Positions 37,618 to 43,820 of a DNA stretch of 64,000 nt are shown here, in pieces. The position numbers and the translations under genes were made by a program. The stretch is from contig JBEKMC010000012.1 of the NCBI GenBank assembly GCA_050008715.1, positions 5,834 through 69,833 of the forward strand, given 5' to 3'. Each line of letters begins with the position of its first letter. The first letter of the stretch is position 1. The DNA comes from Acidimicrobiales bacterium (GTDB lineage: Bacteria > Actinomycetota > Acidimicrobiia > Acidimicrobiales > Bog-793). Below the pieces are notes generated by a model. It saw only the letters and a list, made by a program, of their open reading frames with translations, made no database searches and had not been told where the DNA came from.

Positions 37618-38427
37618 TCAGCCGGTTGGCCCTGCCACTACAGGCCCGGGACCGTTGGCGATCGCCAACTGTCGTGTCGTCTGCTCGCGCAGTGCTGCCA
37701 CTTGCTCGGTCGTCAGCACGTCGCACACCCAGTCCCAGTGCATGGCGACCAACTGGCCCGGCCGGGGCGCGTCGATGAACGAGCGGCCGTCCCGTCGCCA
37801 TGGCACCGTCTCGAACCGCGGCATCCCAAGCTGCAACGACGATCCCGTCCAGGCAAGTGGCTCCCCGCTCGCGGTCACGGCGTCGCCCACGACGTCCTCC
37901 ACCTGCCCCCAGCGGACGCGGCATTGCTCGAGGACGCGGAGCGGTTCGGCCACGCGACCGCGCTTCAGGAGACCCACCCATGGATACACCGAGAAGACGT
38001 GGAAGTTGTGATGGGGGCAGGCACCCGGCTCGAGAGCGGCAGCGGGCTGGCGCCCGCCGACGGCGGACTGAAGGCGAAACGCCTCCGACACCAGCTCGCC
38101 CAACTTCGCCTGTGGGACCTTGTCGAGAAGAGGGCTGCCGATCCAGTACGCCTCCACGACCGCCACATCGAGCGGATCGGCGATGCCGGAAGCTGCGGCG
38201 ATCAACTGGAGGTAGGGCCACGCACCCTCGAAGCGGCGAGCCAGCCGGCGCAGATCCTCCGCCGCTGCGGCCTGGCCAGACGAATCGTGGCCAGACGAAT
38301 CGTGGCCGGCCGCAAGGAGGAGCGCCTCCGAGTCCGGTGGCCCGCAGTAGCCGAGCGAGTTCGGCGGGAAAGCGAACCGAGCGAAGAGCGACGCGCCGTC
38401 GGACGAGCGCGTCGGAAGGCCTCCCAT
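37618..38427 (-). CDS. Conserved unknown protein, last gene of the hydrogenase operon (DUF6390-like as far as I recall)
   Basis: 269 aa. The start overlaps the hypC stop by 1 nt (TGATG). Motifs 'FPPNSLGYCGPP', 'HHNFHVFSVYPW', 'HWDWVCD'. No catalytic family recognised. Confidence 0.5.
   Translation of the reverse strand: MGGLPTRSSDGASLFARFAFPPNSLGYCGPPDSEALLLAAGHDSSGHDSSGQAAAAEDLRRLARRFEGAWPYLQLIAAASGIADPLDVAVVEAYWIGSPLLDKVPQAKLGELVSEAFRLQSAVGGRQPAAALEPGACPHHNFHVFSVYPWVGLLKRGRVAEPLRVLEQCRVRWGQVEDVVGDAVTASGEPLAWTGSSLQLGMPRFETVPWRRDGRSFIDAPRPGQLVAMHWDWVCDVLTTEQVAALREQTTRQLAIANGPGPVVAGPTG
38274..38307. repeat. 15-bp tandem duplication GGCCAGACGAATCGT x2 (+4 nt)
   Basis: Read directly. In frame, giving 'GHDSSGHDSSG' in the 37618-38427 protein. 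Confidence 0.9.
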
Positions 38428-38678
38428 CAGGTCCGATCGGTGACGGCGGCCTGCATCTCGTCGTAGGCGGCGGCGAGCCGGCGTGCCTCGGCCTCGGGCA
38501 GCACCCGGACGGCAAGTCCGGTGTGTGCCTGCAGCCAGTCACCCGGGAGCACGTCGACACCATCGAACACGAGCAGGGCCGTCGAGACGCGATGTAACGA
38601 GCCGGCGATGTCGACGATCGCCACCCCTTCCTCCTCACTCGGGAGGGACACGACCTGACCGACCCGCTCGACGCACAT
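38427..38678 (-). CDS. hypC: HypC/HybG/HupF-family hydrogenase maturation chaperone
   Basis: 83 aa. N-terminal Met-Cys ('MCVERVGQVV'), OB-fold-size protein. 1-nt overlaps on both sides. Confidence 0.8.
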   Translation of the reverse strand: MCVERVGQVVSLPSEEEGVAIVDIAGSLHRVSTALLVFDGVDVLPGDWLQAHTGLAVRVLPEAEARRLAAAYDEMQAAVTDRT

Positions 38679-39154
38679 CAGCGCGCCTGCTCCGACCCGG
38701 CGCCGGCTGCCGCAACGAGGTCGTCGACCAGCGTCTCGAGCGCCTCCGCGACGGGCGGGGAAAGTCCGACACCGTTACGGACGTCTCCGACCTCGATGCC
38801 GTAGAGAACCAAGTGGGCGGGCAGCCGTTCGAGCACGCGAGCGAGCTCCACCGCTTCGGCCACACCGATCCCGTGGGTGCTGACCGCAGACGCCGGCGGG
38901 GCGGCGTCCCATTGCCCGTCGATGCACTCGAAACGGTGGAGTGCGCCGGGCTCGCCGCCCGAATCGACGGCGTCGATGAGGAACACCTTGGATCGCCCCG
39001 ACCACCGCTGCACGAGCGCTACCGGCTCACCGCTCTCCTCCACGAGGTCCACGCCGCCCATCCCCGCCTGGCGGAGCAGCTCGATGGCGGCGACTCCGAC
39101 ACCGTCGTCGCTCCGGTAGGGATTGCCGACGCCGATGAAGAGGATCCTGCTCAC
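38678..39154 (-). CDS. [NiFe]-hydrogenase maturation endopeptidase (HycI/HybD family)
   Basis: GTG 39154 (GTGA overlap with the large-subunit stop). 'GVGNPYRSDDGVG' and 'STHGIG'. Confidence 0.85.
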   Translation of the reverse strand: MSRILFIGVGNPYRSDDGVGVAAIELLRQAGMGGVDLVEESGEPVALVQRWSGRSKVFLIDAVDSGGEPGALHRFECIDGQWDAAPPASAVSTHGIGVAEAVELARVLERLPAHLVLYGIEVGDVRNGVGLSPPVAEALETLVDDLVAAAGAGSEQAR

Positions 39155-40458
39155 GACTTCAGACGGTCGACCCGCAGGTCGAGGAAGTGCGTGGCGCACG
39201 AGATACAGGGGTCGTAGTTGCGGATGGTGTGCTCGCAACGGGCCGTCAGGGCGGCATCGTCCATGTCGAGGTTGGCCTCGACGACATGGGTCAGGTCGTG
39301 CTCGATCGCCTGTTGGTTCTGCGACGTCGGGGGCACGATCGTCGCCGATGTGATGAGACCGTCGGCTCCGATCTCGTATCGGTGGTACAGGAGCCCGCGG
39401 GGCGCTTCGCTCGCACCGTGCCCGACGCCGGCTCGGGCCACGACCTCGATGGACGGCGCTGCCGGGGGGACATAGCCCTCGATGAGGCGGAGAGCCTCGT
39501 CGCAGGCGGCCACTGTCTCGACGGCGCGGACCACGATGCTCTGGAACGGGTTGCGACACTCGGTCCCGAGGCCGGCGTCAGCCGCCGCCTGGCGCGCCAC
39601 AGCCGGGAGAGCGTGCTGATTGAGGCTGTAGCGGGCGAGCGGGCCGACGATGTACTCGCCCCCGTCCCAGCGGCCGTGGAGCGCGTTGCTGTGCTCGACA
39701 TGCTCCTCGTGGATGTGCTCGGAGAACTCCGAGATCGGGATCTGAAGCCTGCCGCTCGACGAGCCGATACGCCGGCCCATGATCGGGTAGTCGCCTTCGG
39801 CGGCCAACGCCACGAGCTCCCAGTCGCCTTCGTAGGACGGGATCGAGAAACCCGCCACCCATTCCACCGTCTCGAGCGCCGCCTGTCGGGCCCACTCCAA
39901 CTCCGGAACGAGCTCGGCCAGCTGCGACTCGTCCGGCAAGCGGTAGAAACCCCCGACGCGCACGTTGATCGGATGGATCGCCCGCCCGCCGATTACCTCG
40001 AGAATGCGGTTGCCGACCTTCTTCAGGCGGAGCCCGCGCTCGACGATGGCCCTGTGGTCGCGGGCGAGCGAGATGGCGCCGTCGTAGCCGAGGAAATCCG
40101 GGGCGTGCAGCATGTAGATGTGCAGGGCGTGGCTCTCGATCCACTCGCCGCAGTACAGCAGCCGACGAAGGTCGGCCAGCTGGCCGTCGACTGTGACGCC
40201 ACAGGCGTCCTCGATGGCGAGGCAGGCGCTCATCTGATACGCGACCGGGCAGATGCCGCAGATCCGCGCCGTGATGTCCGGCGGTTCGGTGTAAGCCCGG
40301 CCCTCGAGGAACGCCTCGAAGAAACGAGGCGGCTCGTAAATGTTGAGCTGCACCGAGGTGAGCTCACCGTCGGTGATCGTGACGTGCAACGCGCCCTCGC
40401 CCTCGACGCGGGCGAGCGAGTGGACGTCGAGGCTCCTCGCACCGTTCTGATGCGTCAT
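39151..40458 (-). CDS. hyhL: [NiFe]-hydrogenase large (alpha) subunit, group 3b-like
   Basis: ATG 40458 (ATGA overlap). N-terminal site '[10 protein letters not shown]' and C-terminal site 'DPCISCATH' followed by a short cleavable tail. 435 aa, typical of cytosolic group 3. Confidence 0.9.
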
Positions 40459-41240
40459 GACGCTGCCTCCTCGACGGTCGAGCCGACCTCCCGGAAGCCC
40501 GGCGCGCCGGCGTTGAACGTGTGGAACACCCGCCCGATGTCGCCGTCGGAGACCGGTACCGTCCGCAGGAGCTGGACGAACGCCGTCGTGTTGATGGTGT
40601 CCGCCGGCCCGTAACAGCCGAAGCAGCCGCGGTCGAAGGCCGGGCAGATCGCGCCGCAGCCGGCGTGGGTGACGGGGCCGAGGCACGGCGTGCCGTGTGC
40701 CACCATCACGCAGGTCGTGCCGCGTCGCTTGCACTCGACGCAGACCGAGCCCGACTGCAGCCGCGGCGGCTTGCCGAGCAGGTACGACGAGATCACATGC
40801 AGCAGCTGCGACTTGTTGATCGGGCAACCCCGGAGCTCGAAGTCGACAGCCACGTGCTCGGACATCGGCGTCGAGGTTGCCAGCGTCTCGATGTACTCCG
40901 GCTGGGCGTACACGATGGAGGTGTAGGCCTTCACGTCGGCGAAGTTCCGCAACGCCTGCACACCGCCGGCCGTGGCGCACGCGCCGATCGAGATGAGGAT
41001 CGTCGACTGCGCACGGATGTCGACAATGCGGTCGATGTCGTGGGCGGTCGTGATCGACCCCTCCACGATGGACAGGTCGTACGGGCCGTCCACCGAGGTG
41101 CTCGACGCCTCGAGGAAGTAGGCGAAGTCGACCGCCCCCGCCACCGCCAAGAGCTCGTCCTCACAGTCGAGCAACGTCAGCTGGCATCCGTCGCAGGAGG
41201 CGAACTTCCAGACGGCGACTTTGGGAAGGCTCTGCGTCAC
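40455..41240 (-). CDS. hyhS: [NiFe]-hydrogenase small (delta) subunit, group 3b-like
   Basis: GTG 41240 (GTGA overlap). 'FASCDGCQ', 'GACATAGG', 'RGCPI', and distal Cys clusters '[11 protein letters not shown]...[15 protein letters not shown]...GCFGC'. No Tat signal. Confidence 0.85.
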
Positions 41241-42091
41241 AGCTCGCGCACCTCCATGAGCGGGCGCGCCGTCGTCCAGCTGACGACGGGGCCGTCCGTG
41301 CAGACGAAGTACCCGGCGAGCTGGCAATGGCCGCAATGTCGGATGGCGCATTGCATGTTGCGCTCGAGCGAGACCTGGATGTCGTCCGGCGATACGCCGC
41401 GCTCGACAAGGTTGAGTGCGACGAAGCGCATCATCACCTCAGGGCCACAGGCGATTGCCACCGTCCGACCCGGTTCGATCGTCAGGCGCGGCAGCTCGTT
41501 CGTGACGATGCCGACGTTGCCCTCCCAGCCGGGCGAGCCGCGGTCGACGATGGTTCGCACGGTGATGGCGCCGTCGTGCCACCAACCGTCGAGCTCGGAA
41601 CGGAAGAGCAGCTCGTCGGCGGTGCGGGCGCCCATGACGAGCGCAACGCTGCCGAACGCAGACCGGTTGGCGAGCACCGCGTGGATCACCGGCCGCACGG
41701 GTGCCAGTCCGATGCCGCCCGCCACGATGATGAGATCCCGCCCCATCGCCGCCTCGACGTCCCAACCCCGACCGAACGGCCCGCGGACCCCGACGACGTC
41801 GCCCTGTTGTTTCGCGCACAAGGCGCTCGTGACGCCGCCCACGTCTCGGATCGTATGCACGAGCACGCCGTCGCTCGTGGTCGCGCTTACGGAGATGGGG
41901 ACCTCGCCAGCGCCCCATGACCACAGCATGTTGAACTGGCCGGGGGCGATCGCCGGCACGCCATCGTCTTCCGGTTCGAGCCTCATCGTGACGGTGGCAT
42001 CCGTCTCACGTCGCGTGCTGGCGACCCGGTACAGCACGGGTCGCATCGGGTCGCGAGCAGTCGCGAGCGCCGCTCCGGCCACTTCAGCCAT
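41237..42091 (-). CDS. hyhG: Hydrogenase gamma subunit: FNR-like FAD/NAD(P)-binding protein with C-terminal 2Fe-2S motif
   Basis: 284 aa. 'GPFG', '[10 protein letters not shown]', and C-terminal '[21 protein letters not shown]'. Confidence 0.85.
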
Positions 42092-42554
42092 GGTCGTCGC
42101 CGAACAGGTCGAGCAGTCGTATACGGGTTGACTCCAGGCGCTCTTCCATGATCTTGGCGACCTCGGTCATCAAGCGGTAGCCGGCCGCAGGGTTCTCCTC
42201 CAGGTACGGGAGCAGGCAGTCGGCGTGCAGTTCTACGGCTCGCACGTGCTCGACGGCGACGGCGTCGAAGTGCCACACATAGGGAGGCACGACCCAGGAC
42301 CAGCCAAGGATGTCTCCGGTCTGCAGCGTCTCGAGTGACACGAGCCCTTTGCTCGGGACGTGCACCCCGACGTTGACGCGGCCGGCCCGGATGGCGAAGA
42401 AGCTCTTCGCCGGGGTTCCCTCCGTGCAGAGCGCAGCACCGGTATCGAACACGACGTTGTTGGCGCACTCGGCCAACCGCCTGCGCAGGTCCTCCGGGAA
42501 CAGTGCGAAGAAACGATGCTCGGCGAGCTCCTCGGCAATCGTGGTGGGCATCAT
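42084..42554 (-). CDS. Stand-alone cyclic-nucleotide-binding (cNMP) domain protein inside the hydrogenase operon
   Basis: 156 aa. '[15 protein letters not shown]...[11 protein letters not shown]...[13 protein letters not shown]' has the CAP/PKA-type beta-roll pattern. No HTH domain. ATGA overlap with the beta stop and an 8-nt overlap with the gamma start. Confidence 0.7.
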
Positions 42555-43738
42555 CGTGTGTCCTCCTTCTGCAATGCGGTCGCCTCAGGCCCGCGTATGG
42601 CGCGCGCCTCTTCGGTGATGTCGATCCCGACGGGGCACCAGGCGATGCAACGCCCGCACCCCACGCAGCCGGATTCGCCGAACTGGTCCCACCACGTCGA
42701 GAGCTTGTGGGTCATCCACTGCCGGTACCGCGCCTTCGTGGAGACTCGCAGAGATCCGCCGTGCAGGTAGGAATGGCTGAGCTGGAAGCATGACGCCCAC
42801 TCACGTACCCGCTCGTCGGTGCCGGTGGCAGCGTTCGGCTCGTCGGCCACGTCCGCGCAGAAGCACGTGGGGCACGCCATCGTGCAGTTGCCGCATGACA
42901 AGCAACGACTTGCGACGTCATCCCATCTCGGGTGGTCCACGGCCGCCAGCAGCAGCGCCGGGAGGCCTTCGGTGTTCATCGACCGCTGCATGCGGGAGAT
43001 TGCAGTCTCCGTGACCTGCGCCGCGCCGGCGAGATCGGCCTCGCCGACCTCCGCCGGGCTCAACCGGGCGGCGACTGCGCTCCCGCGATCGCTCATCGGA
43101 TGGACGAGGAAACGGTGTCGTTGCGGATCGCCGGGGTCGAGCTCGGTGAGGACGAGGTCGGCCCCTTCCCCGACGGCCGGCCCGGTGCCCATCGAGGTGC
43201 AGAAGCACGTCGAGGCGGGATCGCTGCAGTTGACGCCGATGAAGAAGATGCCTTCGCGCCGCCCGGCGTACACCGGCTCGGTGCACTCGCCCTGGAGGAA
43301 GACCCGGTCCTGAACGGCGATGGCGGCGAGATCGCAACCCCGGATCCCGAAGAACGCCCGCTTCGGCGGTGCCGGCTGCGTCTCTTCGAAGATGATCCGG
43401 TCCCCCTCGCGCCGCGACCTCCACAGCACGGTTCTCGGCGGGAACAGATGACGTTTCCAGGTGCCGGCGGGAGCTGCAAAGCCGAAGTACGCCTCGTCGC
43501 TCCGCTCGACCAGCCGGTAGCGGCCCGGCTCCTGGTCGTCGCCCCACCCGCGGGGCAACTGGCTGCTCGTCGTGATCGCTTCGATCACGATCGATCCGTC
43601 GCGCACCGTCGGTCCGAGAACCTCGTAGCCGTCCTCCGCGAGTGCCGCCAACAACTCGTCGAGACCCGAGAGCGGGATCACGGTCGGGACGCGCGACACC
43701 GGGAGGACAGTCACAGAACGAGCCTGCCTGAGGGCCAT
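42551..43738 (-). CDS. hyhB: Hydrogenase beta subunit (4Fe-4S dicluster protein, sulfhydrogenase-beta-like)
   Basis: C-terminal 395 aa of the 948-aa ORF. '[16 protein letters not shown]' and '[12 protein letters not shown]'. Start ATG 43738 is provisional; in-frame GTGs lie just downstream. Confidence 0.8.
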
Positions 43739-43804
43739 GAGTGTGGCAAGGGTCCAATGACCATATTTGGGGTCCGGGGACCAGTAGACAGACACGGTGC
43801 CCAC

Positions 43805-43820
43805 AGTGAAGGTGCTCACA
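43805..43820. promoter_or_regulatory. CRP/FNR-type palindrome AGTGA-N6-TCACA in the hydrogenase / aminotransferase divergent region
   Basis: Read directly. 9/10 match to TGTGA-N6-TCACA, centred ~74 nt upstream of the hyhB ATG. Confidence 0.35.

Follow-up and report, generated by a model that had tools for sequence, protein, structure and literature searches.

A conserved cyclic-nucleotide-binding-fold protein with a tryptophan-rich cassette, encoded between the beta and gamma genes of a group 3b-type [NiFe]-hydrogenase operon

The hydrogenase operon and its CNB-fold protein

The window, by which we mean the whole 64,000-nt stretch of Acidimicrobiales DNA that was analysed, carries on its reverse strand a [NiFe]-hydrogenase operon in which a gene for a small stand-alone protein lies between two genes of the diaphorase module. 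The operon opens with hyhB (42551..43738), encoding the 395-aa beta (Fe-S) subunit of that module (Pfam Fer4_22, E = 1.6e-31; best NCBIfam model, sulfhydrogenase ShyB/HydB), whose only solved homologue is 9nez_B, the beta subunit of P. furiosus sulfhydrogenase 1. The small gene (42084..42554) comes next and is followed by hyhG (41237..42091), which encodes the 284-aa gamma subunit, an FAD/NAD(P)-binding, 2Fe-2S protein (NAD_binding_1 and DHODB_Fe-S_bind; NCBIfam AsrB, cytochrome-c3 hydrogenase gamma and HydG/ShyC). The small (delta) subunit is encoded by hyhS (40455..41240; Oxidored_q6, NCBIfam ShyD/HydD), whose GTG start at 41240 was placed by homology and by a GTGA overlap, and the 435-aa [NiFe] large (alpha) subunit by hyhL (39151..40458; NiFeSe_Hases, NCBIfam ShyA/HydA). 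Downstream lie genes for a hydrogenase maturation endopeptidase (38678..39154; HycI, TIGR00072), a HypC/HupF-type chaperone (38427..38678; PF01455, TIGR00074) and, as the last gene of the coupled operon, a DUF6390 protein (37618..38427; PF19927, E = 1e-87). The DUF6390 gene is syntenic in loci L001-L003, L006, L054, L055, L057 and L069.

With gene starts chosen by homology, hyhB overlaps the small gene by 4 nt (the hyhB stop and the ATG start forming ATGA), the small gene overlaps hyhG by 8 nt, and the following junctions overlap by 4 nt (hyhG/hyhS), 4 nt (hyhS/hyhL), 4 nt (hyhL/endopeptidase), 1 nt (endopeptidase/chaperone) and 1 nt (chaperone/DUF6390). The initial annotation had described the small gene as lying between hyhB and hyhG within eight genes joined by 1-8-nt overlaps, and this was borne out at every junction. 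A strong Shine-Dalgarno motif, AAGGAGG, can be read on the same strand at 42562..42568, 7 nt 5' of the ATG and within the 3' end of hyhB, and the gene is translationally coupled to its neighbours. HyhL finds its best PDB matches in two group 3b enzymes, 5yxy and 9nez (E of about 1e-68, versus 1e-49 for group 3c), and the best NCBIfam models for all four structural subunits (B, G, S and L) are sulfhydrogenase models, though the scores fall below equivalog cutoffs. Judged by sequence, the host operon is a group 3b (sulfhydrogenase/Hyh-type) [NiFe]-hydrogenase operon.

The small gene encodes a 156-aa protein, which had been described as having a cNMP-type beta-roll and no DNA-binding domain, with two quoted strings that correspond to residues 52-60 (FFAIRAGRV) and 80-89. 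A Pfam search returned PF00027 (cNMP_binding) at 37.5 bits against a gathering score of 27.5 (E = 2.4e-9, profile positions 3-88 of 89), with neither a helix-turn-helix (HTH) nor any other domain among the matches. NCBIfam gave no specific model and only weak matches, to the cyclic-nucleotide-binding (CNB) insert of family 2B encapsulins and to Pat. The AlphaFold2 model (pLDDT 89.6, pTM 0.82, 35-sequence alignment) consists of N-terminal helices, an eight-stranded beta-roll and a 30-residue C-helix (122-151), and it stops five residues past that helix, so that the C-terminal HTH of CRP/FNR-type proteins is absent. The best Foldseek matches to this model are the sensor domains of GlxR (4byy/4cyd) and M. 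tuberculosis CRP (3d0s/4a2u), with E of about 4e-11, TM-scores of 0.72-0.78 over the query and 24-26% identity, together with the stand-alone CNB protein 3mdp; the Foldseek probability is 1.00 against the CNB domains of CRP, PKG and HCN. The 156-aa protein thus has the CNB fold, as first described, and is hereafter called the CNB protein. It shares this fold with the CRP-family regulators, in which the C-helix dimerises, and differs from them in lacking the HTH, in ending just past the C-helix and in being encoded within an enzyme operon.

Conservation, co-inheritance and natural fusions of the CNB gene

Group 3b hydrogenases are widespread among soil Actinomycetota, Chloroflexota, Verrucomicrobiota and other phyla, and in mycobacteria, from work on M. 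smegmatis, they underlie fermentative H2 production during hypoxia. The bacterial enzymes are modelled as four-subunit enzymes after archaeal prototypes. P. furiosus sulfhydrogenase I (9nez/9nf0), the T. kodakarensis enzyme (5yxy) and M. smegmatis Hyd3 (MSMEG_3931-3927) have homologous B, G, S and L subunits in the same gene order and are four-subunit enzymes without a CNB protein, according to the chain names of 9nez and 5yxy and the Hyd3 gene table, where the cluster is given as beta, gamma, delta and alpha genes plus a protease gene (PMC2799521). Unlike these four-subunit enzymes, the window and about half of the actinobacterial operons have a fifth gene between beta and gamma.

Using a back-translated scan with one genome per species, we found 33 loci encoding relatives of the CNB protein. 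The order B-CNB-G-S-L was present in 22 of these loci, which span five or more phyla and come from Acidimicrobiales, Thermoleophilia/Gaiellales, MAGs of Bacteroidota, Zixibacteria and Cellvibrionaceae, and one unclassified bacterium. All 16 further Actinomycetota loci have the same order, and the arrangement also occurs in Streptomyces-like genomes. The gene is therefore kept between B and G across phyla, the outcome that a neighbourhood survey proposed at the outset had been meant to establish. One locus labelled Chloroflexia (L023) was dropped as evidence for that phylum, being nearly identical to Thermoleophilia loci. A second arrangement was seen in a more distant 3b-like operon (G089), where a diverged CNB gene follows hyhL in the order B-G-S-L-CNB.

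Loci found through the CNB protein are selected for its presence by construction, and an unbiased survey was made by searching 401 Actinomycetota genomes with HyhB and the CNB family profile. It gave 34 loci with a close HyhB orthologue, or 35 with the window's own genome. The order B-CNB-G-S-L was present in 17 of the 35, and in the other 18 hyhB is followed directly by hyhG, without a CNB gene. On the HyhL tree, one deep clade (10 rows) is entirely without the CNB gene, while the other clade (40 rows) mostly carries it, with nested losses; one such loss marks a clade of genomes of 5-6 Mb, whose sister group is the Streptomyces-like carriers. Presence and absence require 4 changes on this tree compared with about 14 for shuffled labels, and the tree of the CNB family recovers the same subgroups as the HyhL tree. 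The CNB gene is co-inherited with HyhL, and the pattern indicates that it was ancestral in one large HyhL subclade and was later lost several times.

The CNB protein is nevertheless not an obligate hydrogenase subunit, because half of the related operons are without its gene and catalysis can evidently proceed in its absence. M. smegmatis Hyd3 agrees with secondary loss and shows that the enzyme can work without it. We conclude that the CNB protein is probably a real, conserved accessory or regulatory protein of group 3b operons, sitting in about half of them.

The initial annotation had allowed that the arrangement might already be annotated elsewhere, and this caution was justified: the gene is annotated in public genomes. 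In Frankia casuarinae, a group 3b cluster has Francci3_4499, called a 'small transcriptional regulator', at the same place between its two diaphorase genes (PMC11879354), and WP_013415449.1 of Rhodococcus equi 103S is placed likewise (PMC13332983). These were the only two mentions that a literature search for characterisation of the group 3b-linked CNB protein returned, both made in passing, and the search found no biochemistry; neither paper goes into the cassette, the distribution, the fusions or the function. Against the literature found, four features are apparently new: a distribution of about 50% that points to an ancestral gene lost several times later, the natural fusions that join the CNB protein to HyhB or HyhG, the disappearance of the nucleotide cassette throughout the family, and the link to contexts with universal stress protein (Usp) and CBS-BON genes.

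Searched exhaustively with the family profile, 1.84 billion representatives yielded a CNB family of about 840 clusters at 50% identity (E <= 1e-30), most of them about 155 aa long, and a word search gave 69 CNB homologues. The longer matches of the profile search were inspected for fusions, and fusions to each of the two flanking proteins were found. HyhB::CNB is represented by P0113 and P0219, both of 542 aa, from only two contigs that are near-identical; each of these contigs also carries a second, diverged, free CNB gene ahead of hyhG. CNB::HyhG is represented by the P0164 cluster, to which JGI and ENA samples contribute 10 different sequences of 468 aa, and one member, P0229, sits in B-[CNB::G]-S-L-protease-HypC on a 96-kb contig, which is the same operon position. 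A fragmented hyhL call on that contig raised the question of a frameshift artefact. This was ruled out, because the ten sequences come from different samples and differ by in-frame substitutions that extend into the 25-45-aa linker. An AlphaFold2 model of the CNB::HyhG fusion (L087:7001-8404, unpaired alignment) shows two confident domains (pLDDT 88) joined by a disordered linker (162-183), with a pTM of only 0.67. Taken at the sequence level, the HyhB::CNB and CNB::HyhG fusions argue that the CNB protein is physically associated with the enzyme's diaphorase half. A CRP-like dimer as the working unit is hinted at by the tandem CNB genes of Verrucomicrobia, by the two-domain proteins of 300-350 aa that lead the family search, and by the second free CNB gene beside HyhB::CNB.

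A gene placed exactly between those for two proteins that have to be joined could also encode a transient assembly factor or chaperone of the diaphorase module, acting in FAD or Fe-S insertion or in HyhB-HyhG joining and gone from the mature enzyme. The operon does contain maturation genes (protease, HypC and DUF6390), and many lineages do without the CNB gene. A permanent fusion with either HyhB or HyhG, however, suits a resident domain better than a transient chaperone, and paralogues in Usp/CBS contexts have no B- or G-like partner. We know of no CNB-fold protein that serves as a cofactor-insertion factor, and we regard this role as improbable.

The tryptophan-rich cassette, the C-helix and the question of a ligand

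In the canonical phosphate-binding cassette of CNB domains, a Glu contacts the ribose 2'-OH, and an Arg together with a Thr/Ser contacts the cyclic phosphate. Alignment with GlxR and PKG places a Trp-rich cassette at the corresponding site of the CNB protein (residues 84-98; 42261..42305, reverse strand). The Glu of the CRP family is replaced by W85, the Arg by W94 and the Thr/Ser by H95, and the window protein's cassette contains no Arg at all. The replacement is a family trait: the almost invariant motif GWSWxxPP[YH]xW is the most conserved stretch of the CNB family, with G84 conserved at 99%, W85 at 85%, S86 at 91%, W87 at 95%, P91 at 99% and W94 at 79% over 128 non-redundant single-domain family members. 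The family is a clear case of a nucleotide cassette replaced by a conserved aromatic motif.

Structural genomics has yielded two close stand-alone relatives, 3mdp (Gmet_1532, Geobacter metallireducens) and 3gyd (Mfla_1926), each consisting of a single CNB domain in about 140-180 aa. Among single-domain PDB entries, the former matches the family profile best (E = 2.6e-20, TM-score 0.89 over the target); it shares a G-x-S-x-L-x-x-P-Y pattern and likewise has no cassette Arg, but differs in having GVSSLIKPYHYTSSA, without the three Trp.

The initial annotation had proposed that the protein may be a fifth, nucleotide-sensing regulatory subunit or an assembly factor. The B-G position, the co-inheritance and the fusions support the core of this proposal, an extra non-catalytic component with a functional tie to the hydrogenase, whereas cAMP/cGMP sensing is not supported, as the cassette Glu and Arg are both Trp. 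Canonical binding of cAMP or cGMP appears very unlikely from the cassette residues. A genuine cAMP/cGMP-sensing fifth subunit coupling the hydrogenase to cyclic-nucleotide signalling would have the correct fold, and class III cyclase domains are encoded in the same genome (PF00211, at least 3 matches above cutoff). Against it, the cassette has Trp for both Glu and Arg and His for Thr/Ser, with no Arg anywhere in the window protein's copy, and its loss is family-wide; of the explanations considered here this is the most improbable.

The Trp cassette may form an aromatic pocket for a ligand, or it may be a surface that contacts another protein. CNB folds have been retargeted away from cAMP/cGMP in several proteins, namely the trypanosomatid PKA regulatory subunits, which bind nucleosides (6ftf/6hyq), the haem-binding CooA and DNR, CprK and NtcA. 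While 6ftf, 6hyq and DNR are among the fold matches to the CNB model, none of the retargeted CNB domains has GWSWxxPPYxW, and the comparison is best read as an analogy with no specific similarity. Haem or Fe-S sensing as in CooA/FNR was considered separately and rejected, because H95 is kept in only 30% of members and the family as a whole has no conserved Cys.

The other well-conserved stretch is the end of the C-helix, RLxxxRxRLLDLYG (residues 139-152; 42099..42140, reverse strand), which is a candidate dimerisation or docking surface on the grounds of its conservation. Among the same 128 representatives, R139 is conserved at 91%, L140 at 91%, R144 at 88%, L147 at 80%, D149 at 88% and Y/F151 at 86%. 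A docking role for this helix end may be envisaged. The patch coincides with the site where CRP would run on into its hinge and DNA-binding domain.

Dimerisation through the C-helix would also be the basis of a decoy function, in which an HTH-less protein of CRP/FNR type forms C-helix heterodimers with a full-length CRP/FNR regulator and so tunes transcription of the operon by feedback. The closest solved structures are indeed CRP/GlxR sensor domains with the dimerisation helix included, a TGTGA-N6-TCACT box lies 5' of hyhB at 43805-43820, and the name given to the Frankia homologue implies a transcriptional role. On the other hand, identity to CRPs is only about 25%, the protein has no DNA-binding domain and its cassette is unlike that of any CRP; fusions to redox enzyme subunits and a mid-operon position are likewise hard to square with a transcriptional role. 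We consider a decoy very improbable.

The CNB family beyond hydrogenases and the proposed role of the module

The CNB family extends beyond hydrogenases. In ten Verrucomicrobia loci, a cassette-bearing CNB gene adjoins Usp genes with no hydrogenase nearby. Streptomyces-like genomes carry up to 4-6 CNB copies each, most of which are followed by genes for a CBS-pair+BON protein (6 loci) and a NarL/LuxR-type response regulator (5 loci), with a Zn-ADH gene nearby, and in Streptomyces sodiiphilus the module is part of a CNB::CBS::BON fusion. The family tree nests these non-hydrogenase copies among those linked to hydrogenases.

About half of the strong Actinomycetota family members and all of the Verrucomicrobia members found lie away from a hydrogenase, and the CNB protein could therefore act in trans. 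It might then be a free-standing stress or low-oxygen signalling protein, from a wider family co-regulated with Usp, CBS-BON, ADH and NarL-type regulator genes, that shares no more than its expression with the hydrogenase, works on other targets and forms no stable complex with HyhBG. The paralogues that share its cassette and lie beside Usp, CBS-pair+BON, NarL-type regulator and Zn-ADH genes would fit such a role, as would the Streptomyces sodiiphilus fusion and the nesting of the non-hydrogenase copies. SCO0168, a 'Crp-like' protein whose gene adjoins a USP gene and whose kinship to the CNB family is putative, belongs to the predicted OsdR regulon (PMC5069765). Action in trans leaves unexplained, however, why the gene keeps so strictly to its B-G position across phyla, why it overlaps its neighbours by 4-8 nt and why it has been fused to HyhB and HyhG; we consider it rather unlikely.

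The explanation that we favour, to which we give about an even chance, is that the CNB protein is a portable, non-catalytic CNB-fold module that acts as an accessory or regulatory part of the group 3b hydrogenase, on its HyhB/HyhG diaphorase half. It would probably work as a dimer, and its ligand, if any, would be other than cAMP/cGMP. Under this explanation, the protein would be made together with the group 3b [NiFe]-hydrogenase and would dock at or near the HyhB C-terminus and the HyhG N-terminus, probably dimerised through the C-helix in the manner of CRP-type CNB domains. The docked module may then modulate the flow of electrons from NAD(P)(H) to the Fe-S centres or the oligomeric state of the complex. 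Such modulation could be constitutive, or could depend on a non-cAMP/cGMP ligand held in the aromatic pocket, for which a nucleoside, an NAD(P)H-type molecule or another aromatic metabolite would be our guess. The same module is reused with other low-oxygen or stress-type partners (Usp, CBS-BON), and for this reason it is best seen as a portable regulatory or adaptor domain and not as a core subunit.

A bolder form of the favoured explanation, which we hold only tentatively, counts the CNB dimer as a genuine fifth subunit in many of the bacterial group 3b enzymes. It would bridge HyhB and HyhG, or two BGSL protomers, and act as an allosteric gate on the flow of electrons from NAD(P)H to H2, responding to a metabolite other than a cyclic nucleotide, with the module being reused on dormancy proteins of CBS-BON and Usp type. 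If this is true, the CNB fold would gain a new class of ligand, and the enzyme would be the first [NiFe]-hydrogenase gated by a metabolite. A conserved fifth protein that is fused to the diaphorase in some lineages would mean that a layer of regulation or organisation is missing from the archaeal and mycobacterial models. Its ligand or partner, once found, would widen the known roles of the CNB fold and could also explain the recurring link with Usp/CBS 'dormancy' genes. The Usp and CBS-BON neighbours of the non-hydrogenase copies resemble actinobacterial low-oxygen/dormancy clusters.

Additional CNB-fold genes

In the HyhB::CNB lineage, where the CNB domain is fused to HyhB, the fusion gene is followed by a second, free CNB gene (L088:4649-5110; L089:3464-3925). 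Because the cassette of this free copy is degraded, reading GYCWLIPPYQCRFD, the sequences suggest an asymmetric CNB pair, with one copy conserved and one diverged.

A CNB-fold gene is also found as the last gene of a distant 3b-like operon ordered B-G-S-L (L090:4972-5595, G089:C6). Its cassette, AWSGLVPPFTFTSAA, is closer to the type of 3mdp, the stand-alone CNB protein structure, than to the Trp-rich type. Upstream of this operon is a gene for a Kup K+ transporter.

In Streptomyces-like genomes (family f33, L034-L051), Trp-cassette CNB proteins occur as up to 4-6 paralogues per genome. The neighbours met repeatedly there are a CBS-pair plus BON protein, a NarL/LuxR response regulator and Zn-ADH, with LysE, LysR and MFS genes recurring beside a second subgroup.

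Upstream region and gene boundaries of the hydrogenase operon

Within the 96 nt inspected upstream of hyhB, we located a CRP/FNR-like box, TGTGAGCACCTTCACT, at 43805-43820 and a palindrome, GGTCCCCGGACC, at 43771-43782; the palindrome bears a loose resemblance to the GGGAC/GTCCC half-sites of DevR/OsdR-type boxes.

The mechanical hyhS ORF (40455-41351) starts at ATG 41351, which would give a 115-nt overlap with hyhG. Judged by homology and the GTGA junction, the true start is GTG 41240, not ATG 41351.

The translationally coupled gene series is closed by the DUF6390 protein gene (37618-38427; Pfam E=1e-87). This gene again lies 3' of hypC or the protease gene at L001-L003, L006, L054, L055, L057 and L069, and one of these operons is without a CNB gene.

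hyhL beside the CNB::HyhG fusion

The 96-kb ENA contig carrying the CNB::HyhG fusion has no full-length hyhL call: over L087:9305-10539, gene calling gives a hyhL fragment of 124 aa, and an ORF on the opposite strand covers the remainder. The fragmented call is probably due to an assembly indel or a pseudogene.
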